This document shows, piece after piece, positions 9,756 to 34,898 of a DNA stretch of 44,147 nucleotides. Below the pieces are notes generated by a model. It had not been told where the DNA came from and did no database searches. It saw only the letters and a program-made list of their open reading frames with translations. Source of the stretch: Pseudomonadales bacterium (GTDB taxonomy: Bacteria > Pseudomonadota > Gammaproteobacteria > Pseudomonadales > Pseudohongiellaceae); the NCBI GenBank assembly GCA_028279115.1, contig JANQSV010000087.1:1-44147 (forward strand), read 5' to 3'. The translations under genes were made by a program, and so were the position numbers. Position 1 is the first letter of the stretch; each line of letters opens with the position of its first letter.

Positions 9756-10223
9756 ATGGAGCATACTTCGCACGACAGCTTGACCGTCGCCAGACGGATT
9801 GGGGAAGCGGGAATGGAGCAAACGCAGGCCGACGCCATAGCTTGGGCGATTCGTGACATCTTCAAGGAGGAGGCCGCGAAACTCGCCACCAAGGCTGACT
9901 TGGCTTTACTGAAAGGCGATATCGCCAAAGTCGAAGGCACGATCGCTGGCCTCGAAGGCAAGATCGCAGGAGTCGAAGGCAAGATCGCAGGAGTCGAAGG
10001 CACGATCGCAGGAGTCGAAGGCACGATCGCTGGCCTTGATGCCAAGATCGACACAGTCAAGTCAGAACTCAAGGACGAAATTTCTCACCTGCGCTCCGAT
10101 TTGTCGTGGATGCCGTTTCGTGTGTGCTGGTGGATGCTGCTGACGCTCGCCACCGCCGCCGGACTGCTGCTGACGGCGCAACAGTTATGGAATTCCGGTC
10201 TGGCGCAAAGCTTGTTCGGATGA
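9756..10223 (+). CDS. DUF1640-like coiled-coil protein with C-terminal TM helix and heptad tandem repeats
   Basis: ATG 9756 with GGGAG 7 nt upstream. The N-terminus ..LTVARRIGEAGMEQTQADAIAWAI.. and the following coiled-coil are DUF1640-like. The C-terminus has a hydrophobic helix (WWMLLTLATAAGLLL). Confidence 0.7.
   Translation: MEHTSHDSLTVARRIGEAGMEQTQADAIAWAIRDIFKEEAAKLATKADLALLKGDIAKVEGTIAGLEGKIAGVEGKIAGVEGTIAGVEGTIAGLDAKIDTVKSELKDEISHLRSDLSWMPFRVCWWMLLTLATAAGLLLTAQQLWNSGLAQSLFG
9930..10055 (+). repeat. In-frame 21-bp tandem repeat, about 6 units (VEGTIAG/LEGKIAG heptads)
   Basis: Units GTCGAAGGCA(C/A)GATCGC(A/T)GG(A/C) lie at 9930, 9951, 9972, 9993 and 10014, plus a degenerate unit at 10035. 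Confidence 0.9.
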
Positions 10224-10232
10224 GACAGCGAA

Positions 10233-11756
10233 ATGAGGCGAAGAGATTTTCTCAATGCAAGCATCGGGGCCGGAGTGGCCGTGCTGGCCGCCTCCGGCGC
10301 CGCCCGGCGCGCATTCGCCGCGGCTCTGCCGGCAAACATCACCGAGTTTTCCGCGCTCGATCTTTCCGCCGCCATCGCCGGGCGGGACGTAAGTTGTCTG
10401 GAAACGATGCAGGCCTACCTGGAACGTATCCACCGCTACAACCCCATATACAACGCCATCATCGGCATGTTGCCGGATGATGAATGCCTCGCCCTTGCCG
10501 AAACCGCGGATGCGGAACTCGCGCGCGGACAATACCGCGGCTGGATGCATGGCATGCCTCATGCGGTCAAGGACCTGACACCCGCCGCCGGGCTGCCTTA
10601 CACCAGCGGCTCGCCCCTGTTCGAGGACCGTATCGCCGAACAGGACGGCGCGGTTGCGGCAAGCATGCGCGCCGCGGGCGCGATCTTCATCGGCAAGACC
10701 AACGTTCCCGAATTCGGGCTCGGTTCACAATCCTACAATCCGGTCTGGGGCGCCACGGGCTGCGCCTACAACCCGGAACTGACCAGCGGCGGCAGCAGCG
10801 GCGGCGCGGCCTGCGGCATGGCCACGCAAATGCTGCCGATCGCGGACGGCAGCGACATGATGGGCTCGCTGCGCAATCCGGGCGCTTTCAATAACGTCAT
10901 CGGATTTCGCCCCAGCGCCGGCCTGGTCAGCGGCGACGATCCGTTCTCGCGCACCTTGTCGACTTCGGGCCCGATGGGAAGAAACACGGCGGACACCATC
11001 CGGCTGCTGCACACGTTGGCAATGGCGCCGGGGCCGGAGCAGCCGGCGGCATTGCGCCAGGCGCTGCCGGAGCCGGACGAGTATCGGCCGCTCGAACCGG
11101 CCGGACTGCGCATCGGCTGGCTCGGCGACTACGAAGGCTACCTGGCGATGGAACCCGGCATCATGGAATTGTGCGAAAGCAATCTGGCGACGCTGGAAGC
11201 CAATGGCGCCATCGTCGAGCCGGTAATGCCGCGCTTCGACATGGCGGAATTGTTCCAATGCTGGCTTGACCTGCGCAACCAGGGGCGTATCGGCATGCGG
11301 GAGTATTACGAGAATCCGGATCTGCGGCCGCTGCTCAAGCCGGAACTCGTCTGGGAAATCGAGATGGGCTACGAACTCGGCGCCGACGACATCTATCGGG
11401 CCAATGCAATCAGGCGGCGCTGGTACGCCGAAGTCAACCGGCTGTTCGAAAGCTGTGATTTCCTGATGCTGCCGACCACCCAGGTATTTCCGTTCCCGAA
11501 AACCACGCCCTGGCCTTCGGAGATCGATGGCCGCGCCATGGATACTTATCATCGCTGGATGGAAGTGGTCATCGGCGGCAGCCTCGCCGGCATTCCCGTG
11601 ATCAACATTCCGGCCGGCTTCGACGCCGGCGGACGCCCCATGGGCATGCAGGTCATGGGGTCCTTCGCCCGCGACCGCAGAGTGCTCGAATTCGCCCTGG
11701 GCTGGGATCGAATCACCGACCACCTCGCCCAAAGACCAGAACTCGTCTCGGCTTGA
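10233..11756 (+). CDS. amidase (amidase-signature family), Tat-exported
   Basis: Twin-arginine leader MRRRDFLNASIGAGVAVLAASGAARRAFA. AS-family motifs are GGSSGGAA and the Ser-rich GKTNVPEFG context. Confidence 0.9.
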   Translation: MRRRDFLNASIGAGVAVLAASGAARRAFAAALPANITEFSALDLSAAIAGRDVSCLETMQAYLERIHRYNPIYNAIIGMLPDDECLALAETADAELARGQYRGWMHGMPHAVKDLTPAAGLPYTSGSPLFEDRIAEQDGAVAASMRAAGAIFIGKTNVPEFGLGSQSYNPVWGATGCAYNPELTSGGSSGGAACGMATQMLPIADGSDMMGSLRNPGAFNNVIGFRPSAGLVSGDDPFSRTLSTSGPMGRNTADTIRLLHTLAMAPGPEQPAALRQALPEPDEYRPLEPAGLRIGWLGDYEGYLAMEPGIMELCESNLATLEANGAIVEPVMPRFDMAELFQCWLDLRNQGRIGMREYYENPDLRPLLKPELVWEIEMGYELGADDIYRANAIRRRWYAEVNRLFESCDFLMLPTTQVFPFPKTTPWPSEIDGRAMDTYHRWMEVVIGGSLAGIPVINIPAGFDAGGRPMGMQVMGSFARDRRVLEFALGWDRITDHLAQRPELVSA

Positions 11757-25148: not shown

Positions 25149-25427
25149 ATGATCGAAGGGATTCGACACAAGGCGCTCCGAATCTTCTGGACCACGGGAA
25201 ACTCCAGGGGACTCAACGCCGAATGGCTTCACAAACTACGACGGATCCTTTCGGCGATGGAGGCTGCGGAGAGCCCTGAAGATATGAACTATCCCGGTTC
25301 TTTCTTCCATCGCCTGAAGGGAGACCGGTCGAATCGATATTCAGTTCGCCTAACCGCGAACATGAGAGTGACGTTCGGCTGGCATGATCAAGGGGCGGTT
25401 GATGTGGATATAGAGGATTATCACTAA
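25149..25427 (+). CDS. higB: type II toxin HigB (RelE/ParE superfamily, killer protein)
   Basis: 92 aa with a C-terminal ..NRYSVRLTANMRVTFGWHDQGAVDVDIEDYH signature. Paralogous to 34617-34898 and 39900-40178. The stop overlaps the higA start (TAATG). Confidence 0.9.
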   Translation: MIEGIRHKALRIFWTTGNSRGLNAEWLHKLRRILSAMEAAESPEDMNYPGSFFHRLKGDRSNRYSVRLTANMRVTFGWHDQGAVDVDIEDYH

Positions 25428-25732
25428 TGGTCAAGCGGCATGCCTCCATAGTTCCCGCGCATCCGGGCGAAATTCTCCGAGAGGAAATTCTGCCGTCGAT
25501 AAGCATGAGCAAGTCGGCAGTGGCGACCACCCTCGGAATCTCTCGGCAGACGCTTTACGACATATTGAACGAGCGACAGCCGGTCACGGCCGAAATGGCT
25601 GTTCGATTCGGCAAACTCTTTGGCAATGGCGCCAACTTCTGGGTAAATCTGCAACGCAACCATGACCTTGCTGTGGCCGAACGCGCAGTTGACGTTACAG
25701 GCATCCCCACGCTCCGGGCCAGCGCTGGATAG
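25427..25732 (+). CDS. higA: HigA-family antitoxin (XRE HTH)
   Basis: HPGEILREEILPS..SKSAVATTLGISRQTLYDILNERQPVTAEMAVRFGKLFGNGANFW is the classic HigA antidote pattern. Confidence 0.9.
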   Translation: MVKRHASIVPAHPGEILREEILPSISMSKSAVATTLGISRQTLYDILNERQPVTAEMAVRFGKLFGNGANFWVNLQRNHDLAVAERAVDVTGIPTLRASAG

Positions 25733-25747
25733 CTAAACGCAATAGAG

Positions 25748-26422
25748 TTGTTCGTGGATCCTACTCTCATAACATTAATTGCTATCTTTGTAGCGTTGAC
25801 TTTGTTGTTCAACGCCTGGCTCAAGCCTAAATCATCTCGAAGGTACGCACGCGTACCGGCGGCAAGAGCCAGAGCTCACTTCCCCTTCGAGATTTTCGGT
25901 CGCGCCAGAGTTACCGATGCCGACGGCATCAACGTGAACGGCCGGGAAATCAGACTTGCCGGCCTCGATGCGCCCGAGTATGGCCAGCCCGCGGTAATCC
26001 ACGGTCGAACCGTCAATCACGGCGGAATCATAAAGCACAGGCTGATCAAGCTCATTGGTGGCAATAAAGTCCGCGCTGTGATAACCGACACCGACAAATA
26101 TCATCGCTTGATCGGAACCGTGTATCACGGCGAAACCGATATCAACGAATTCATGGTCGAGAGCGGCTGGGCTGTTGCCGCTTATGGAAACCAGTACAAT
26201 CGGCAACAGGCGTTTGCCCGCAAAAATCGCAAAGGCATGTGGAACTACGATAGTTTTCATGATCCCCGCACTTGGAAATCAATGGATGATCCGCCAAATG
26301 CGCCCAAAAATTACGGAAAACGCTTTCGCCCCAAACGCAGCCGTTCGGGCTCGGATTCCGTATCGCGATACATCACGCGAAAACTCGTGCCGTATCGCTA
26401 CCGCCGCCTTTTCAGACTCTGA
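25748..26422 (+). CDS. membrane-anchored thermonuclease (SNase-like) family protein with basic C-terminal tail
   Basis: TTG start. N-terminal TM helix ([15 protein letters not shown]). SNase motifs [36 protein letters not shown] and [10 protein letters not shown]-terminal K/R-rich tail. Confidence 0.8.
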
Positions 26423-26451: not shown

Positions 26452-28008
26452 ATGCCAAAAAAGACCCTCAACAACGGCGCTAACCTCGGTTTCGAAGCCC
26501 AGCTATGGGCCGCAGCAGACAAGCTGCGCGGCAACATGGAGCCGTCCGACTACAAACATGTCGCCTTGGGCCTGATTTTCCTGAAATACATCTCGGATGC
26601 CTCCGAGGCCAAGCGAGCGGAATTGCTGAAAGACGATCTGGCCGATGCCGAGGATCCCGAGGAATACCTCGCCGAAAACGTCTTCTGGGTGCCGAGGGAG
26701 GCTCGCTGGTCGCATCTGCAAGCTGCGGCAAAGGAAGCGATGATCGGCAAGCACATCGACAACGCCATGCTTGCGATTGAGGCCAAAAATGCCTCACTTA
26801 AGGGCGTCCTGCCGAAAGAATACGCTCGCCCGGCACTCAACAAGGTCATGCTCGGCGAACTTATCGATCTTGTGAGCGGTATCGGCATGGCCGAGGAGTC
26901 TGATCGCTCCCGCGACATTCTCGGTCGGGTCTACGAATATTTCCTCGGCAGCTTCGCCGGTTCCGAGGGCAAACGCGGCGGCGAGTTTTACACGCCCCGC
27001 TCCGTTGTCCGGCTGCTCGTCGAGATGCTGGAACCCTACAAAGGCCGCGTCTACGACCCTTGCTGCGGCTCCGGCGGCATGTTCGTCCAGTCCGAGAAGT
27101 TCGTCGAAGAGCATGGCGAGCGCATCGGCGACATCGCCATCTACGGGCAGGAAAGCAATTACACGACCTGGCGGCTCGCGAAGATGAACCTGGCGGTGCG
27201 CGGCATCGACGCCGACATCCGTTGGAACAACGAAGGCAGTTTCCATAGAGACGAGTTGCCAGACCTGAAGGCCGACTTCATCCTCGCCAATCCACCCTTC
27301 AATATCTCCGATTGGGGCGGCGACCGATTGCGGGAAGACGCGCGCTGGAAGTTCGGCGTGCCGCCGAAGGGCAATGCCAATTATGCGTGGCTTCAGCATA
27401 TGCATCATCATCTCGCGCCGAACGGCACGGCGGGCGTGGTGCTCGCCAACGGCTCGATGTCGTCGGCGCAGTCCGGCGAAGGCGCAATCCGCCGCGCCAT
27501 GGTCGAGGCCGACGTTGTGGATTGCATGGTCGCCCTGCCCGGCCAGCTTTTCTATTCCACCCAGATTCCCGCCTGTCTCTGGTTTCTCGCCCGCAACAAG
27601 AATCCCGATAATGGCTGGCGCGACCGGCGCGGCGAAGTGCTATTCATCGACGCCCGCAAGCATGGGCGCATGGTTGACCGAACCCGCAGGGAGTTTACCG
27701 ACGAGGACATCGCCCAAATCGCCGACACATATCACGCCTGGCGCAGCACGCGGGGCACGGCCAGATACATGGACGAGCCGGGATTCTGCAAATCCGTGAC
27801 TTTGGAAGAGATCGGGCGGCACAATCATGTGCTGACACCGGGTCGCTATGTCGGCGCGGCGGCGGCTGAGGATGACGGCGAGCCGTTTGACGACAAGATG
27901 AAACGGTTGGTCGCCCAACTGCGCGGACAGCGGGCAGAAGGGGTGAAGCTGGACGCAGCGATTGCGGCGAATCTTAAATCGCTGGGCTATTGGGAGCATG
28001 GCGAATGA
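26452..28008 (+). CDS. hsdM: Type I restriction-modification system methyltransferase subunit HsdM
   Basis: N-terminal HsdM domain ([32 protein letters not shown]), AdoMet motif DPCCGSGGM and catalytic NPPFN. Confidence 0.95.
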
Positions 28009-28256
28009 GCATGAACGTTGTCGAACTGATTGAACTTTTGAGAGGCTATCCGCCCGAACTCCGTGTAGTCGTGGACGGATACGAAGAAGGTTATGACGAT
28101 CTGTCGCCGGATCAACTGTCGGTGGCAAGAATCAGCCTCGACACTGGCAAGTCATCTTGGCAGGGAAAACATGGGGAAGCGGTCGACTTGGCTGGGACGC
28201 CCTCTGATGCCGTCAAGGTTGTCAATGCCTTGGTCCTGCGCCGCACATCCCAGTGA
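28005..28256 (+). CDS. hypothetical protein (83 aa), translationally coupled to hsdM
   Basis: ATG 28005 overlaps the hsdM stop (ATGA). The product [32 protein letters not shown]... matches no family I recognise. Confidence 0.5.
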
Positions 28257-28272
28257 TGGAGGTCTATGGGAA

Positions 28273-28695
28273 ATGGACAAGATAGACTATTCAAAATTTC
28301 AATTATCCCTGAAACGTCTCGAAGAACAGTACGAGAATCACCGACACGCCGATACATCCCTCCCGGAAATTACCCGCGAAGGTATTGCGGAGTCTGTCAT
28401 TCAACGCTTCAAGACTTGTTACGATTGTCTTTGGAAAGTGCTGAAGCGGTATTTGATCGTGGAATTGGGAGTCGCGGACCCGCCCAACAGTCCCAAACCC
28501 GTGTTTCGTCTCGCACGTGAAAACCAAGTGCTTTCCAGCGCACTTGAGGAATGGTTCGGCTATGCGGAAGCCCGAACCAACACATCGCACGACTATGATG
28601 GTGAAAAAGCCAAAGCGTGTCTGGCTTTGACACCGAACTTCATCGCCGATGCAGTCGGACTTTACGAGACAATGACCGGCCAGTCGTGGCAATGA
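28273..28695 (+). CDS. HEPN-domain protein, HI0074-type nucleotidyltransferase substrate-binding family (putative RNase toxin)
   Basis: ATG 28273 with GGAGG 10 nt upstream. FQLSLKRLEE..., IQRFKTCYDCLWKVLKRYL and an intact Rx4H motif (RTNTSH, codons 28573-28590). Confidence 0.8.
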   Translation: MDKIDYSKFQLSLKRLEEQYENHRHADTSLPEITREGIAESVIQRFKTCYDCLWKVLKRYLIVELGVADPPNSPKPVFRLARENQVLSSALEEWFGYAEARTNTSHDYDGEKAKACLALTPNFIADAVGLYETMTGQSWQ

Positions 28696-30296
28696 CCCGA
28701 TCAATAGATCTTTCGGTTCGAGAACAGGAGATGGTTCGGAAATTGCTCGCGCGATTTCTCCCGAATACCGAAGCCTGGGTGTATGGCTCCCGCGTCCACT
28801 GGACCTCGCGCCCCGAATCGGATCTCGACATGGTTGTGTTCACAACGCCCGAGCAGGCTGGTGCGGTATCGAAACTTAGGGAGGCGTTCGACGAAAGCGA
28901 TCTGACGTTTCGTGTTGATCTTTTCGTTTGGGACAACGTGCCCCCAGAGTTTCGCCACGAAATCGAGCGGGAACATGTGGTGTTGGTTGAGTCGGCGACC
29001 TGCTCTAGAGGATGGAAGCAGCGCCAACAACTCGGCGACTGCATTTTAATGAACGAAGATACTTACTCGCCAAAGGAAAAATGGCCTTTCGTAAATTATC
29101 TTGAGACCGGAAACATCTCGGAAAACCGAATAGAGAAGATTTTGCACATTATCCCGGAGCGAGAAAAGCTGCCCAGTCGCGCCCGCCGCAAGGCCCGATC
29201 AGGAGGTGAAATAGTCTACTCAACAGTGCGCCCAAATCAGAGACACTTTGGCATATTGCGCGAAGTACCGGAGAACTTTCTTGCTTCTACAGAATTCGCC
29301 ATTTTTCGGGGTAAAGAGGCCATTGCGGACACTGGGTTTATCTACCGGTTTCTAATCCAGGACCATGTCGTTGAGCGACTTCATACTATCGCCGAGCACA
29401 GCACATCAGCCTACCCGTCAATCAGACCTGCGGATATCGAGCGTTTGGAGATTTCCCTACCGCCCGTCGCTGAACAACGCACCATCGCCAACATTCTCGG
29501 CAAACTTGATGACAAGATCGAGTTGAACCGCCAGATGAACGAAACGCTGGAGGCGATGGCACGAGCGATCTTCAAGGACTGGTTCGTCGATTTCGGTCCC
29601 ACCCGCGCCAAGTCCAAAGGTCTCGCTCCATACTTGACCCCCGAACTTTGGGACCTATTCCCCGACGCACTGGATGACGAAGATAAGCCGGTTGGATGGT
29701 CGTTAGCTGAGTTGACGGCAGTCGCCGACATCAATCCAGAATCTTGGTCCAGAATAAACTGCCCGGAAGAAGTTGAGTATGTGGACCTCGCGAACACAAA
29801 GTGGGGGACAATTGAGGCCACGCACCGATTCGATTGGCAACAAGCGCCAAGTCGGGCAAAACGCGTTCTTCGCCCCGGAGATACAATCGTAGGAATGGTT
29901 AGGCCCGGTAACGGGTCTTTTGCATTTATCGGCGTACCCGGCCTAACCGGAAGTACTGGATTTGCAGTTCTCAGACCGTTAGAAAATCGTCACAGTGAAG
30001 TGGTGTATCTCGCTGCGACTGATCCTGAAAACATCAAGCGCCTTGCTAATCTGGCTGATGGTGCGGCCTATCCGTCAGTTCGTCCTGAAGTCGTGGGAGC
30101 AACCGAGATCGCCGTGTCAGACGACGCGGTTATCGCCAGCTTTTCGGCACTTGTTTCGCCCTTGTTTGACCGTATGGAGACCAACAAAGTGGAGGAAAAC
30201 GCGCTTGTCCAGACCCGCGATTTCCTTCTGCCCAAACTAATTTCCGGTGAAATTCGCCTGAACCAAGCAAAGAAACTCGAGGAGCCAGCATCATGA
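28692..30296 (+). CDS. hsdS: In-frame fusion: MNT nucleotidyltransferase (HI0073-type, about 100 aa) plus full-length Type I specificity subunit HsdS
   Basis: ATG 28692 overlaps the HEPN stop (ATGA). The MNT motif is GSRVHWTSRPESDLDMVV (GSx10DxD) ... VDLFVWD. There is no stop before the HsdS-like GWKQRQQLGDCI. HsdS central conserved region AEQRTIANILGKLDDKIELNRQMNETLEAMARAIFKDWFVDF and distal region TRDFLLPKLISGEIRL are both present. I checked the frame codon by codon across 28920-29050. Confidence 0.8.
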   Translation: MTRSIDLSVREQEMVRKLLARFLPNTEAWVYGSRVHWTSRPESDLDMVVFTTPEQAGAVSKLREAFDESDLTFRVDLFVWDNVPPEFRHEIEREHVVLVESATCSRGWKQRQQLGDCILMNEDTYSPKEKWPFVNYLETGNISENRIEKILHIIPEREKLPSRARRKARSGGEIVYSTVRPNQRHFGILREVPENFLASTEFAIFRGKEAIADTGFIYRFLIQDHVVERLHTIAEHSTSAYPSIRPADIERLEISLPPVAEQRTIANILGKLDDKIELNRQMNETLEAMARAIFKDWFVDFGPTRAKSKGLAPYLTPELWDLFPDALDDEDKPVGWSLAELTAVADINPESWSRINCPEEVEYVDLANTKWGTIEATHRFDWQQAPSRAKRVLRPGDTIVGMVRPGNGSFAFIGVPGLTGSTGFAVLRPLENRHSEVVYLAATDPENIKRLANLADGAAYPSVRPEVVGATEIAVSDDAVIASFSALVSPLFDRMETNKVEENALVQTRDFLLPKLISGEIRLNQAKKLEEPAS

Positions 30297-31243
30297 GTGC
30301 ATTGCTCGGTAGAACCGTTCGACTGTTTCTCGCGGAAGGTAAAGCTTCGGGGCTTACCACCGCAGAGATAATGAACTGGACAGGACACGTTCTTGCCGGC
30401 TCCCGAAGCGGGTTGCCGGCCTTTTTGAAACGCCCCGAGTTTGAGCGCACCGGCATCTACTTTCTGATCGGACCTGATCCGAAAGATCCCGAAACACTCC
30501 AAATCTACATCGGCGAAAGCGATGTTGTCCGCAATCGACTCGTTCAACACGGCAAGGACGAGAGTAAAGAATTCTGGGACCGCGTCTGCGTTGTCACGAG
30601 TAAAGATCAGAACATCACGAAAGCGCACGCGCGCTATCTGGAAGCACGTCTGATTGCAATAGCGAATGCTTCCGGCAACGTCACCGTCGTGAACGGAACG
30701 GCACCACCGCCAATTTCACTGCCCGAGGCTGATGAATCCGACATGGAGTTTTTCATTGAACAGATCAAGCTGATCTTTCCCGTTCTCGGCTTCGATTTCC
30801 TACGACAATACAAGATTGAGGTCGAAACAGCTCGAGAATCTGCTAAACGCTTGGGAGACCGAAGCGACACCCCCATTTTCCGATTGATCAACCAAAAGCG
30901 CGGGATTGAGGCGCAGGCGCAGGAGTTGGGCGGGGAGTTTGTGGTGCTGCAAGGCTCAACAGCAGTCGCCGCTTGGTCAAGCAAAGCTGACCACAGCTAT
31001 GCCAAACTGCATCGGCGACTTGTAAATTCCGGCAAGCTTGCCCCAAGGGATGGCTCTATCCTACGATTTTCCGAAGATGTGGTTTTCTCGAGCCCAAGCG
31101 CGGCGGCTGCGGTCATTCTCGGACGTACTGACAATGGACGAAAATCTTGGAAGCTCAGCAAATCGGGTGTTTCTTATGCCGATTGGCAAGCGCAGCAGGT
31201 CGTCTCGGCGGCTTTGGCAAATCTCGCGGATGCCCCAGCATGA
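30293..31243 (+). CDS. GIY-YIG nuclease family protein with C-terminal DUF4357
   Basis: ATG overlaps the hsdS stop (ATGA). N-terminal RLFLAEGKASGLTTAEIMNWTG, GIY-YIG core GIYFLIG...IYIGESD..RL.QH, and NITKAHARYLEARLI. The C-terminus (FSSPSAAAAVILGRTDNGRKSWK) is typical of DUF4357. Confidence 0.8.
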   Translation: MSALLGRTVRLFLAEGKASGLTTAEIMNWTGHVLAGSRSGLPAFLKRPEFERTGIYFLIGPDPKDPETLQIYIGESDVVRNRLVQHGKDESKEFWDRVCVVTSKDQNITKAHARYLEARLIAIANASGNVTVVNGTAPPPISLPEADESDMEFFIEQIKLIFPVLGFDFLRQYKIEVETARESAKRLGDRSDTPIFRLINQKRGIEAQAQELGGEFVVLQGSTAVAAWSSKADHSYAKLHRRLVNSGKLAPRDGSILRFSEDVVFSSPSAAAAVILGRTDNGRKSWKLSKSGVSYADWQAQQVVSAALANLADAPA

Positions 31244-31503
31244 TTCGCGTTTCTGTAGTTCTGAAGCTTCTCCCCTCTGGGCACCTGAATACGTTGGCGT
31301 CCTTCAAAAATTCCGCGCCGATTTTAGTAAGCCTTTTAATTTCCGGCAAATTTCGCCTTCAGACTGCCGAAAAGGCAGTAGAAGCCATAGCGTGATTCGT
31401 ACGCCATCATTCCAAATTTCTCCAAAATCTCGTGTGCGAAGCCGTGGTGATGGGATAATCGCGCCATTACATTCGCATACGCAGTAACTGGAGCAGGCAA
31501 GCA

Positions 31504-32511
31504 ATGCGCACGAACGAAATCCCCACAGCCCCGGGCGGCGAGGTCGTCGTGTACGAATCCAAGGAGGGCCAAGTTCACTTGGATGTTCGCTTCGAGCGGG
31601 AATCGGTCTGGCTGACGCAACGGCAGATGTCGGAGGTTTTCAAGACTTCAACTGACAACGTCAGCTTGCACCTTAAGAACATTTACGAAACGGATGAACT
31701 GGAAGAAGCGGCAACTACCGAGGATTTCTTGGTAGTTCGATCTGAAGGCAACAGATCAGTCAAGCGGGAGATCAAGCATTACAATCTGGACGCGATCATT
31801 TCGGTCGGCTACCGGGTCAACTCCAAGCGGGCCGTGCTTTTTCGCCAGTGGGCTACCCGCACCTTGCGTGGGCATCTCGTTCGCGGCTACACGCTGAACG
31901 AGCGCAGGCTGGCCGAACGCGGCCTCGACGAGGCGAGGCAGACCTTGGAGTTGCTCGCCCGCACACTCAAGAACCAAGCACTCGTAGACGAAACCGGAAG
32001 CGCGGTGCTGCAAATCATAACCGGCTACGCTGACACTTGGCGCCTGCTGTTCGAATACGATGAGGACCGACTTGCGGCGCCTGCCGACGGAAAACCCGCC
32101 ACGAGCGCGCTTGATCTCGAAATCACCCTCGCCGCGATCGACGCTTTCAAACGCGACCTCTCCGCGAAAGGCGAAGCCTCGGCACTGTTCGGCAACCCGC
32201 GTGGCGATGGATTGGAGGCGATACTCGGCAACATCGAGCAAACGATGTTCGGCGAACCGCTCTATCGAAGTCGCGAGGAAAAGGCCGCCAATCTGCTCTA
32301 TTTCGTGGTCAAAGACCATCCCTTCACAGACGGCAACAAGCGCATCGGCACCCTGCTGTTCCTGCTCTATCTGACGCGGGAGAATATCTCGCACCGGCTC
32401 GACCCCAGGGGATTGACGGCGCTTACCCTGCTGATCGCGGAAAGCGAACCCGCGAACAAAGACCTGATGATCCGCCTCATCATGAATCTCATGAGCGATT
32501 TCGGAAGATGA
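31504..32511 (+). CDS. RhuM-family protein with C-terminal Fic/DOC domain
   Basis: The RhuM N-terminus reads VWLTQRQMSEVF...YNLDAIISVGYRVNSKRAVLFRQWATRTLR. An intact Fic motif, HPFTDGNKRIG, lies near the C-terminus. Confidence 0.88.
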   Translation: MRTNEIPTAPGGEVVVYESKEGQVHLDVRFERESVWLTQRQMSEVFKTSTDNVSLHLKNIYETDELEEAATTEDFLVVRSEGNRSVKREIKHYNLDAIISVGYRVNSKRAVLFRQWATRTLRGHLVRGYTLNERRLAERGLDEARQTLELLARTLKNQALVDETGSAVLQIITGYADTWRLLFEYDEDRLAAPADGKPATSALDLEITLAAIDAFKRDLSAKGEASALFGNPRGDGLEAILGNIEQTMFGEPLYRSREEKAANLLYFVVKDHPFTDGNKRIGTLLFLLYLTRENISHRLDPRGLTALTLLIAESEPANKDLMIRLIMNLMSDFGR

Positions 32512-32602
32512 GTAATCAACCGCCCCCAAATCACCGAGCGCCACGCGAACCGGCGAATGCGCCCGGTCTGGTGATTCCGAAACTTTTGGCGGGTGAACGT
32601 CC

Positions 32603-32803
32603 ATGATTCGAGTCTCCGTTAATCCAGAGTTACTGCGTTGGGCGCGTGAACGCGCCGATATTACACAGGAAGACTTGTTGCCGAAGTTCAAAAAACTGGC
32701 GGACTGGGAGAGTGGACAAGCGCAGCCTACACTCAAGCAACTGGAATCGTTCGCAAAATCTGTCCATGTGCCGTTCGGCTATTTGTTCCTTGCGGAGACA
32801 TAA
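32603..32803 (+). pseudogene. 5' remnant (66 codons) of an XRE-HTH/ImmA-IrrE-type gene
   Basis: [56 protein letters not shown] is the N-terminal HTH module of proteins that normally continue for about 300 more residues into a metallopeptidase domain. Here it stops at 32803, 8 nt before the hsdR remnant. Confidence 0.6.
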
Positions 32804-32811
32804 AGATTGTC

Positions 32812-34161
32812 ATGACTGGCGCCGCCTCGGACCCGAAAGAATGGCAGCAGCACATCGGCGGCAAAGCGCGCCGAGAGTTGCTTGCCAAGCGGGCCAAAGA
32901 TCCTGACGACCCGCTCAAGCTGGTAATCGTCCGAGACATGTGGCTGACGGGCTTTGACGTACCGAGCATGCACACTATGTACGTCGACAAGCCCATGCGA
33001 GGGCACGGGCTCATGCAGGCAATCGCGCGAGTGAACCGCGTGTTTCGCGACAAGCCTGCCGGACTGGTCGTGGACTACATCGGCATTGCCCAGAATCTGA
33101 AATCGGCGCTCAGCCAGTATTCGGGCGAGGATCGGCAATACGCCGGCATCGACGAATCCGAAGCTGTCGCCGTGATGATGGAAAAGTACGAGATCGTATG
33201 CGGCATGTTCCACGGTTTCGACTACCGGGCCGGGCTCATCGGCACTCCACAGGAGCGGCTTGTTGCTCTCGCCCATGCAATCGAGTGGGTGCTAGAAATG
33301 CAGCAACGCGAGGCAGCCAGGGAATCGACCGAAGAAGGCAAGAAACAAGCGCATCGCCGGTTCAACGATGCAGTACTCGCCCTAACCAAGGCGTTCGCTC
33401 TGGCGGCTGCGAGCGACGAGGCGCGCAGCATCCGCGATGAGGTCGGCTTCTTCCAGACGGTTCGGTCGGCGCTCGCCAAGAGCGCTCCCGGCTCGGGAAC
33501 CTCTTCCCCCCAGCGGGATCTTGCGGTGCAGCAGATCATCAGCCGCGCCGTCGTCTCGACCGATATCATCGATATTCTCGAAGCCGCTGGGTTGGAATCG
33601 CCGGACATCTCCATTCTCTCCGACGAGTTCCTCGAAGAGGTTCAGGGAATGGAAAAGAAGAACCTTGCCATGGAGGCACTTCGAAAACTCATCAACGGCG
33701 AGATTCGCTCGCAAAGCCGAGTAAACGTCGTGCAGACTCGAGCTTTTTCCGACCGGGTAGAGGAAGCAATCGCCCGCTACCATACCAACGCCATAACAAC
33801 CGCGGAGGTCATCCAGCGGCTGATCGAACTTGCCAAGGACATCCGCGCCGCGCACAAACGCAGCGAGGAGGAAGGGCTTACACAGGAGGAAATCGCCTTC
33901 TACGATGCATTGGCTCAGAACGAAAGCGCTGTCGAGGTCATGAGTAATCAGCACCTTCGCGTAATTGCTCATGAGCTATTGAGCAGCCTGAAGAACAAAG
34001 CCTCCGTCGATTGGCAGCACCGCGAATCGGCGCGGGCGCGAATGCGTGTTCTCGTCAAACGCATACTCCGCAAGCACGGCTATCCGCCCGACCTCCAGGA
34101 CGCCGCCGTACAGACCGTCTTGCAACAGGCCGAGGTTCTCTCGGCGAAATGGGCCGCATGA
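32812..34161 (+). pseudogene. hsdR: hsdR remnant: C-terminal ~45% of a Type I restriction subunit
   Basis: Begins in the late helicase region ([42 protein letters not shown]). Runs through the C-terminal helical domain ([19 protein letters not shown]...[18 protein letters not shown]). The nuclease domain and helicase motifs I-IV are missing, and only about 300 bp separate it from the previous gene. Confidence 0.85.
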
Positions 34162-34317
34162 CGAACAGGACGTTGCATGCAAGCAAATGATGAAAGTTTG
34201 GTAGATTTTTCTTGGACTCGCCTAGGCCGAAACAATTGGATAAGTGGAAAATACCTAGATAGTGTCCTAGTGTCGTATCGTGTGCGCTACGCGAACAACC
34301 CGTACGCTGAACGAACC

Positions 34318-34605
34318 CTATACGGCAACAATGCGTTCGACATTAATCTTTTGTTCCAGATCGCGCGACTGGGCAAGATCGAAAGCCAACTGCATACCTA
34401 GCCAAGTCTCGGGCGTAGAACCGAAAGCTTTCGACAGCCGGTAAGCCATTTCGATGGAAACGGACGCCTTTTCGTTGACCAGATGGGAAAGCGTTTGACG
34501 TCCGACGCCAAGCCGTCTGGCGCCTTCCGATACCGACAGGGCTAACGGCTTCAAACAATCTTCTCGCACGATGGCGCCAGGGTGCACCGGGTTCTTCATT
34601 GCCAT
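34318..34605 (-). CDS. higA: HigA-family antitoxin (XRE HTH)
   Basis: NPVHPGAIVREDCLKPLALSVSEGARRLGVGRQTLSHLVNEKASVSIEMAYRLSKAFGSTPETWL. A GGAGG RBS overlaps the higB stop. Confidence 0.9.
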   Translation of the reverse strand: MAMKNPVHPGAIVREDCLKPLALSVSEGARRLGVGRQTLSHLVNEKASVSIEMAYRLSKAFGSTPETWLGMQLAFDLAQSRDLEQKINVERIVAV

Positions 34606-34616
34606 TTCAGGACCTC

Positions 34617-34898
34617 CTAATAATGGTAATCCAGATAGTCCACATCTACCGCGTGGCCGTCCTCAAACCGAAAGGTCACCCGCCAGTTGGCTGAGACGGA
34701 AACGGCATATCGCCCCTTCATGGGACCTTTGAGTGGATGAAGCCTGAAGCCGGGAATATCCATTCCACTTGGGTTGCTGCTCCAGTCCAGCGCGGTCAGG
34801 ATTCGCAACAATTTCGGAACATGACCCTGCACCACCCGTGCCGAGCGTCCTTTCTCGTAAATTTCTTTCAGGCCGCTGTGCCGGAACGATTTGATCAC
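34617..34898 (-). CDS. higB: type II toxin HigB (RelE/ParE superfamily)
   Basis: GTG start. MIKSFRHSGLKEIYEKG...GRYAVSVSANWRVTFRFEDGHAVDVDYLDYHY. Confidence 0.9.
   Translation of the reverse strand: MIKSFRHSGLKEIYEKGRSARVVQGHVPKLLRILTALDWSSNPSGMDIPGFRLHPLKGPMKGRYAVSVSANWRVTFRFEDGHAVDVDYLDYHY

Follow-up and report, generated by a model that had tools for sequence, protein, structure and literature searches.

Background

Toxin-antitoxin (TA) pairs made of a HEPN protein and a minimal nucleotidyltransferase (MNT) are among the most abundant TA families, and Type I restriction-modification (R-M) ranks among the most abundant defense systems. The cooperation of HEPN/MNT pairs with Type I R-M systems is still largely conjecture. 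In the present study, we examined a locus in a 44,147-nucleotide stretch of DNA (hereafter the window; contig JANQSV010000087.1 of assembly GCA_028279115.1, from a member of the Pseudohongiellaceae in the order Pseudomonadales), in which a gene for a predicted HEPN toxin lies in a Type I hsd operon and the predicted MNT antitoxin forms the N-terminal domain of the specificity subunit, HsdS. Such a covalent antitoxin-HsdS fusion gives a concrete handle on the cooperation of the two systems and makes their coupling directly testable.

In characterized type VII TA pairs, the Rx4HxY motif of the toxin HepT carries the catalytic Arg and His as well as a Tyr that is AMPylated (PMC7641770), and the antitoxin MntA polyAMPylates this Tyr via its GSx10DxD motif (PMC7641770, PMC11586414). 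Toxicity and AMPylation have both been shown by experiment for the toxin-type HEPN class (PMC7641770, PMC11586414). According to an analysis published in 2013 (PMC3710099), HEPN proteins of the PF08780 kind were reassigned as toxins, R-M-associated HEPN domains are fused to nucleases, helicases, and ATPases (the MNT-HsdS case is unmentioned), and RhuM/DOC genes occur in R-M and HEPN neighborhoods. The same analysis proposes, by analogy with PrrC, that HEPN RNases in R-M operons are silenced by R-M proteins and are freed when a phage disables restriction. For the Ronin system, it has been shown that the HsdMS core cages a toxin and releases it on binding ArdA, Aop1, or Ocr (bioRxiv 10.1101/2023.04.06.535777).

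Previous work has thus described HEPN/MNT TA pairs, the occurrence of HEPN genes in R-M operons, and RhuM/DOC genes as cargo of these operons. By contrast, a conserved fusion of the antitoxin to HsdS, and the breadth of its distribution, appear to be unreported. Full-text searches of the literature, to which most subscription journals and REBASE do not belong, so that absence is not proof, turned up no account of the fusion, and neither did a targeted reading of PMC3710099, PMC3632139, PMC2701414, PMC12839542, PMC13000451, and PMC8649781. In public databases, the fusion proteins are labeled 'restriction endonuclease subunit S' or 'hypothetical protein', and in PADLOC the MNT domain is already part of one Specificity_I profile (PDLC03138). 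Because the annotation labels and the specificity profile absorb the MNT domain, the TA content of such loci has been overlooked.

Results

The ORF (open reading frame) that follows the HEPN gene in the window (28692..30296, 534 amino acid residues) encodes in a single frame an MNT domain and a complete HsdS, in agreement with the earlier note on this DNA, which had regarded the MNT as physically fused to HsdS. Residues 1-99 (28692..28988) form a minimal nucleotidyltransferase of the MntA/HI0073 type, predicted to be the antitoxin that AMPylates the HEPN protein. A short, poorly conserved, predicted disordered linker (residues 100-107, 28989..29012) leads to the HsdS body (residues 108-534, 29013..30296), in which the first target recognition domain (TRD1), a central conserved helix, TRD2, and a C-terminal helix follow one another; this part matches Pfam Methylase_S and PADLOC Specificity_I (E 1.8e-70). 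The AlphaFold2 (AF2) model of the fusion protein, built on 79 homologs, had a predicted local distance difference test (pLDDT) score of 90.6, and the output gave no inter-domain error estimates. In the model, the MNT domain spans residues 8-99 and is followed by a linker of low confidence (about residues 100-107; pLDDT below 50 at residues 103-105) and then by a full HsdS. For the HsdS body, a Foldseek search returned 3okg, 5ybb, 1yf2, and EcoKI (2y7c) with E values of 1e-13 to 1e-17; the two TRDs and the two conserved helical regions of HsdS are present by both the model and this search.

The contigs from two independent coral-metagenome runs were identical to the window over positions 27900-34300. 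As the two runs agree across the junction, and as the architecture recurs widely, an assembly artefact or a frameshift as the origin of the fusion was ruled out. The linker varied in length, and its mean column identity was 0.32, whereas the MNT domain reached 0.70. The linker alignment contained no conserved internal start codon for a free HsdS, which is weak evidence. These comparative data suggest that MNT and HsdS are joined by a short tether that is disordered and not conserved.

The HEPN gene (28273..28695) encodes a single-domain, HepT-like protein of 140 residues, a predicted RNase of the HI0074 family, which scored above the cutoff for PF08780 (E 1.4e-20) and had HI0074 (1jog, E 3e-7) as its closest match in PDB. 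The earlier note had read an intact RTNTSH motif in this protein. The motif is present (28573-28590) and extends to RTNTSHDY (28573..28596, residues 101-108), that is, to the full Rx4HxY form, in which R101 and H106 are predicted to be catalytic and Y108 to be the AMPylation site. In the alignment of HEPN relatives, Y108 was invariant and R101 and H106 were kept in at least 90%; the whole motif was intact in 79 of 80 related loci. We found 1961 homologs of the HEPN protein, and the 120 listed were mostly 138 residues long, with 68-80% identity.

The MNT domain matched Pfam Polbeta PF18765 (E 7.6e-9), and its best match in PDB was HI0073 (1no5, E 4e-15). Foldseek aligned it to 1no5 with a TM-score of 0.88-0.91 and a root-mean-square deviation of 1.4-1.6 Å, and to 8xeo with a TMt of 0.82; the matches included the Legionella MNT and the Shewanella MntA. 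Its GSx10DxD motif, likewise intact as the earlier note had it, is GSRVHWTSRPESDLD (residues 32-46, 28785..28829), and 77 of 80 locus proteins retain the motif, as do 145 of 149 cluster representatives. Judged by the curated NCBIfam thresholds, the two proteins are, at the sequence level, relatives and not members of the families TIGR01987 (the HI0074 family; HEPN, E 6.5e-12, 45.6 bits where the cutoff is 55.8) and NF047752 (MntA antitoxin; MNT, E 3.5e-8, 33.3 bits against a cutoff of 60). Homology and motif conservation show the HEPN protein to be a putative RNase of the HepT type and the MNT domain to be a putative adenylyltransferase of the MntA type. Both look catalytically competent, and the motifs and PDB matches support the earlier assignment of the pair to the HI0074/HI0073 TA family.

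The ATG of the MNT::HsdS ORF at 28692 overlaps the HEPN stop codon as ATGA, the 4-nucleotide overlap described in the earlier note. That the HEPN gene comes first was also correctly noted. The note took this order for the reverse of the HI0073/HI0074 prototype; among the pairs compared, it is a reversal only relative to the characterized Shewanella-type HepT/MntA pairs; HEPN-first order was seen in all 80 related loci and in the RefSeq plasmids examined, and is the norm for these relatives.

We studied the distribution of the fusion in two ways. A HEPN alignment search with one genome per species gave 308 relatives, of which the best 80 (65-96% identity) were analyzed together with 10-kb flanks, so that a more distant hsdR was missed; 79 of these loci could be classified. 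The MNT domain was searched against 1.84 billion cluster representatives, which gave 2507 matches, and the best 149 were examined. In the 80 loci, the MNT frame was 3' of the HEPN gene, at or just after its stop codon, except in locus L034, where the MNT match was about 1.5 kb upstream.

The 79 classified loci comprised 52 full MNT::HsdS fusions, 5 truncated fusions, and 22 free MNTs. Full-length hsdM accompanied 51 of the 52 full fusions, and full-length hsdR was found within 10 kb in 31 of them. The nearest relatives of the truncated fusions were full fusions (76-95% identity). In the 22 standalone loci, the MNT was about 100-137 residues long and HEPN identity was 65-71%; 12 of these loci had neither hsdM nor any other R-M gene within 10 kb, 8 had only hsdM fragments directly upstream, and 20 had no hsdR. 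The survey of gene neighborhoods for HEPN-MNT-hsdS adjacency, which the earlier note had proposed, thus found the MNT fused to HsdS in 57 of the 79 closest loci. With hsdM beside nearly every full fusion, it spoke against the possibility, raised in the same place, that the pair is just a hitch-hiking module equally frequent outside R-M loci. These results support a link of the HEPN-MNT pair to Type I R-M that is specific, not occasional, in this clade.

The cluster representatives gave a similar picture. Of the best 149, 92 were at least 450 residues long and had an HsdS body, 27 were shorter and had HsdS sequence (119 fused in all), and 9 were of 150 residues or less; because TRDs are variable, the count of fused clusters is inflated and is an upper view. 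About 100 of the 120 best HsdS homologs of the fusion protein carried an N-terminal MNT with intact GSx10DxD. In four divergent fused variants (P0011, P0027, P0050, and P0065), a PF08780 gene was immediately upstream in each, and hsdM was upstream in 4 of 4. An orphan MNT::HsdS with an intact motif was found at 9875-11617 of locus L001 (P0006), with no HEPN gene or hsdM within 10 kb; it adjoins an AAA-ATPase/PD-(D/E)xK gene and two ORFs without a family match.

Other variants of the architecture were also observed. Four proteins of 752-841 residues (P0050, P0079, P0101, and P0114, the last at L091 7001-9526) have an additional C-terminal DUF559/Vsr-like endonuclease domain. Forms of 624-639 residues (P0027, P0044, P0066, P0082, P0097, and P0111) have the variant motif GSRATETF...SDVD, and P0027, the sole one of this set inspected, showed two NTP_transf_2 matches ahead of HsdS. 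Several HEPN-MNT pairs may be stacked at one operon: L092 (3217-13903) has two free pairs, hsdM, and then HEPN-MNT::hsdS-SLFN-hsdR; L065 (10001-14114) has a free pair followed by a divergent HEPN (25% identity) with an MNT::HsdS fusion; and multiple pairs around one hsd operon are also indicated for L069 (5560-6292).

The hosts belong to the Alpha- and Gammaproteobacteria, Acidobacteriota, Nitrospira, Rhodothermales, Opitutales, Latescibacterota, Caldilineaceae, Spirochaetia, Acidimicrobiales, Binatia, and Tectimicrobiota, and many are metagenome-assembled genomes (MAGs) associated with sponges or corals. As the HEPN proteins are 65-77% identical across these host groups, the distribution points to horizontal spread. 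No relative of the window HEPN was found in IMG/VR contigs, which were searched for carriage by phages. The window itself was complete in two coral-metagenome runs and partial in many sponge-metagenome runs.

Cultured organisms provide further examples. Plasmid pZMOB01 of Zymomonas mobilis ATCC 10988 carries hsdM, a HEPN gene (RNLTSHTY), an MNT::hsdS fusion (528 residues, GSRARWTAKDYSDLD, with ATGA overlap), and hsdR. Acetobacter plasmids have the same genes unfused, in the order hsdM, HEPN, a free 101-residue MNT, hsdS, and hsdR. In one of them, the MNT stop codon overlaps the hsdS start in another frame, and in another the two are two bases apart. Plasmids of Legionella adelaidensis and Gemmobacter fulvus carry HEPN-then-MNT pairs with no R-M genes. 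Three states therefore exist: the free pair, the pair between hsdM and hsdS, and the fused pair. The viable hsdS deletion on pZM32 of Z. mobilis ZM4 (Lal et al. 2021, PMC8432527) was considered as an experimental test and proved irrelevant, as the hsdRMSp locus there is hsdR-hsdM-hsdS with a 420-residue HsdS and has no HEPN or MNT.

In the window, the hsdR gene is only a 3' remnant (32791..34161), equivalent to residues 624-1079 of a 1079-residue HsdR; the ORF at 32812-34161 encodes the C-terminal 449 residues. The intact 1079-residue HsdR of locus L024, used as a tblastn query, matched the window with 93% identity, but the alignment started only at residue 624 of the query (base 32791 of the window), and no other hsdR piece was found in the 44-kb window by this search. 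The PADLOC REase_I profile likewise covered only positions 591-1024 of 1029. Directly 5' of the remnant is the 5' remnant of an XRE-type helix-turn-helix (HTH) gene (32603..32803, 66 codons, HTH_3; intact homologs have about 383 residues), which is 69% identical to residues 1-65 of the 383-residue protein of locus L023, with the match ending at base 32797. Since the HTH gene aligns only to residue 65 and HsdR only from residue 624, one deletion joined both genes. Its junction, at about 32791-32799, was identical in the contigs of the two independent runs.

With this deletion, hsdR lost its nuclease domain and the greater part of its motor domains. The window therefore has HsdM and HsdS and lacks the intact HsdR (nuclease plus superfamily 2 motor) of a Type I system, and with only a 3' remnant of hsdR its R-M system cannot restrict. 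As half of hsdR is deleted, the R-M part of the locus is already decaying, and the methyltransferase and the TA pair remain. Other loci can be arranged with the window in a decay series: the full system, loss of hsdR (the window), truncation of hsdS after the MNT, hsdM fragments, and the bare pair. Close relatives include standalone pairs, of which 8 adjoin hsdM fragments, and the truncated fusions are nearest to full ones; both observations suggest that R-M genes decay while the TA pair persists. Where the fusion is truncated or the MNT is free, the HEPN gene is sometimes inactivated as well, as in L004 (motif Arg changed to His, with a truncated fusion) and in L071 and L078 (in-frame stop codons); the module seems to be in its final stages of decay there. 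An addictive module that survives the operon hosting it would be expected to leave such a series.

The genes from hsdM to hsdR are co-directional (+ strand) and tightly packed, as read from the ORF list and scans with Pfam, NCBIfam, and PADLOC. The first gene, hsdM (26452..28008), encodes the 518-residue N6-adenine DNA methyltransferase subunit (Pfam N6_Mtase, E 2.3e-109, and HsdM_N; PADLOC MTase_I, E 4e-216) and is apparently intact, with NPPF and DPCCGSGG motifs in its predicted translation. It is followed by orf83 (28005..28256), which encodes a small conserved protein without assigned function and has its own ATG overlapping the hsdM stop codon (ATGA). We found 152 homologs of orf83, about 81 residues long with an invariant HG...LVLRR, and in 36 of the 79 loci the gene was directly 5' of HEPN. 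The protein had no match in Pfam, NCBIfam, PADLOC, or the PDB profile search, and Foldseek returned nothing below E 1 with an AF2 model whose pLDDT was only 64.7. Across loci, identity to the window correlated at 0.93 between HsdM and HsdR and at 0.81 between HEPN and orf83, and at 0.31 between HEPN and HsdM. We infer from these values that the orf83-HEPN-MNT segment probably has its own evolutionary history and recombines independently of hsdM and hsdR. The orf83 product may be a third component of the TA segment.

The gap between hsdS and hsdR (30293-32511) holds two PADLOC candidate defense genes. The DUF4357 gene (30293..31243, 316 residues; PF14267, E 4.8e-16; candidate PDC-S14, E 4e-121) overlaps the hsdS stop codon with its start as ATGA, and L024 has this gene at the same position. 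The RhuM-Fic/DOC fusion gene (31504..32511, 335 residues) matched PF13310 (E 2e-24), PF02661 (E 2.5e-10), and candidate PDC-S23 (E 7e-121). The cargo of this slot differs among related loci and includes an HTH-peptidase gene, SLFN/AlbA_2, and DUF4411.

The 25-35 kb block of the window has a G+C content of 52-58%, compared with 60-66% in the flanks. This low-GC island is flanked by two HigB/HigA pairs in opposite orientations (in the 25149-26422 region and at 34318-34898), whose HigB copies are 42% identical, and it contains a staphylococcal-nuclease homolog (25748-26422) just 5' of hsdM. At the island boundaries in the window, we found no tRNA genes and no convincing flanking or att-like repeats. 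A promoter and terminator scan of the locus gave no excess over shuffled sequences.

Discussion

We consider it likely, with a rough probability of 0.6, that the locus contains a type VII (HepT/MntA-class) TA pair that was inserted between hsdM and hsdS and whose antitoxin was welded to HsdS, stabilizing the cassette. The antitoxin gene would have lost its stop codon, from an arrangement of overlapping ORFs like that of the Acetobacter plasmids, and its product would now be made as the N-terminal part of a full-length HsdS. The MNT domain of about 100 residues is predicted to use ATP to (oligo)AMPylate Tyr108 beside the R101/H106 site and thereby to switch the RNase off. The comparative data suggest that neutralization would need only the MNT domain, and not HsdS or HsdM, because free MNTs coexist with motif-intact HEPN proteins in close relatives. 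The cassette hsdM-[orf83]-HEPN-MNT::hsdS-...-hsdR would have spread by horizontal transfer. Its main effect would be selfish, in that an addictive module is tied to an otherwise non-addictive Type I operon; since the module is fused to hsdS, the 5' part of hsdS could not be lost while HEPN is active. The module may also add a generic TA-style growth arrest when expression of the operon is shut off.

Several points weigh against this explanation. For this subfamily, the toxicity, the AMPylation, and neutralization without HsdS are all predictions. A selfish module leaves unexplained the dominance of the fused form (52 full fusions versus 22 standalone MNTs) and also the insertion site, which is constantly between hsdM and hsdS; this constancy could mean that the two are functionally coupled, or that the insertion arose once and then spread. 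The locus counts come from the best 80 among 308 genome matches, and the cluster representatives over-count fused forms. Finally, L001 has a fused gene with neither HEPN nor hsdM nearby.

A second explanation, which we regard as unlikely but as the strongest of the alternatives, is that the HEPN protein would guard the Type I methyltransferase complex in the manner of PrrC or Ronin. The antitoxin would be a subunit of M2S1 (or R2M2S1), with its activity or stability dependent on the state of the complex. The tethered MNT would be put out of action by anti-restriction proteins of phages (DNA mimics of the Ocr/ArdA type or peptides like Stp) or when HsdM is lost; once HsdS was unseated or depleted, AMPylation would stop, and newly made or de-AMPylated HEPN would be free to degrade RNA and abort the infection. 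The earlier note had suggested logic of this kind by analogy with PrrC. The idea itself is not new, as it was published in 2013 (PMC3710099). In its favor, the association with Type I R-M is specific and conserved, and the fusion of antitoxin and HsdS in one polypeptide would be an attractive physical basis for coupling between toxin and complex. The fused form also outnumbers the unfused form in the clade. There are precedents in PrrC/EcoprrI (PMC3710099) and in Ronin, which consists of HsdMS and RonA without HsdR (bioRxiv 10.1101/2023.04.06.535777), and the state of the window (M, S, and toxin, with no functional R) resembles the Ronin layout.

However, our data gave no sign that the R-M complex keeps the RNase latent. 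The standalone and unfused MNTs of close relatives imply neutralization without HsdS or HsdM, and recombination of the TA segment is independent of hsdM and hsdR. No conserved docking surface was detected, and the few residues of the linker are disordered and vary among relatives. Inhibition in this family is covalent, so that release needs de-AMPylation or new synthesis, and no de-AMPylating activity is evidently encoded; if the HEPN protein is a guard, the orf83 product might be, for example, a trigger adaptor or a de-AMPylase. As for the likeness to Ronin, the window hsdR has lost its first 623 or so codons by a plain deletion, and 31 of the 52 fused loci keep a full hsdR; because of these two facts, the R-less state is decay and not design.

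A somewhat less probable explanation is that the fusion is a neutral accident, a by-product of two overlapping ORFs (through stop loss or a frameshift) with no selective value, and that it is common because one successful cassette spread horizontally among sponge and coral symbionts. In the Acetobacter arrangement, a one-base frame change would suffice to fuse the genes. The HEPN identity (65-77%) across many phyla, mostly in sponge or coral MAGs, fits the spread of a single cassette, and the linker is unconserved. Against this, fusions are found in divergent MNT subfamilies: the GSRVNGRAHDGSDLD type, the GSRATETF...SDVD type, tandem-MNT forms, the Zymomonas form (MNT-domain identity about 35%), and, in L065, the second module (25% HEPN identity). 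Their presence in several such subfamilies suggests repeated or ancient fusion that was retained, and the catalytic motifs are intact in the fused forms. The remaining explanation, that the two proteins are a two-subunit nucleotidyltransferase that modifies DNA, HsdR, or a phage component, is very improbable: PF08780 is still named 'nucleotidyltransferase substrate binding protein' in Pfam and a tether to the DNA-recognition subunit would place the enzyme on DNA, but an intact Rx4HxY with RNase residues and acceptor Tyr is the signature of a toxin-type HEPN, the class for which toxicity and AMPylation were shown by experiment (PMC7641770, PMC11586414) and whose proteins the 2013 analysis reassigned as toxins.

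The favored and the second explanation differ in what the fusion would mean. If it only anchors an addictive module, it explains how non-addictive Type I operons are stabilized on mobile islands and why HEPN-MNT pairs are left behind as R-M genes decay. If the HEPN protein is a guard, the locus would be an enzyme-based analog of PrrC and Ronin, found widely among symbionts of sponges and corals and also in Z. mobilis, and coupling of toxin release to the state of the methyltransferase would be a new mechanism of anti-anti-restriction. Three comparable forms are at hand: fused (the window and pZMOB01), unfused (the Acetobacter plasmids), and standalone (Legionella adelaidensis and Gemmobacter).

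Comparison with known systems

The pair in the window shares with type VII HepT/MntA pairs the same two folds, the Rx4HxY and GSx10DxD motifs, and adjacent, translationally coupled genes. Its MNT has about 100 residues and no long C-terminal helix, as in HI0073 and the Legionella MNT. It differs in that the MNT is not a free antitoxin of less than 150 residues but the N-terminal domain of a 534-residue HsdS inside an hsd operon, and in that the toxin gene comes first, whereas the MNT gene is upstream in Shewanella-type HepT/MntA (PMC7641770). A parallel to the fusion is FhepTA (PMC13000451), in which an MNT antitoxin domain is also joined by a linker to a partner and the chemistry is oligoAMPylation. 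There, however, the MNT is fused to its own toxin, whereas in the window it is fused to the unrelated HsdS and the toxin is a separate polypeptide.

PrrC/EcoprrI (Type Ic R-M) is similar to the window in that a HEPN-superfamily RNase is encoded within a Type I hsd operon. PrrC is a fusion of an ABC-ATPase and HEPN, has no antitoxin gene, and is encoded between hsdS and hsdR, whereas the HEPN of the window is a bare protein of 140 residues without ABC-ATPase, has a dedicated, predicted enzymatic antitoxin, and is encoded between hsdM and hsdS. Ronin (hsdS, hsdM, and ronA without hsdR; E. coli ECOR55) resembles the window as a toxin-linked Hsd methyltransferase core without a working HsdR. RonA is a 61-residue membrane toxin silenced by HsdMS without an enzyme, in contrast to the predicted soluble RNase of the window with its predicted AMPylating antitoxin, and hsdR is absent from Ronin by design, whereas the relatives of the window cassette mostly keep a full hsdR (31 of 52 full fusions).

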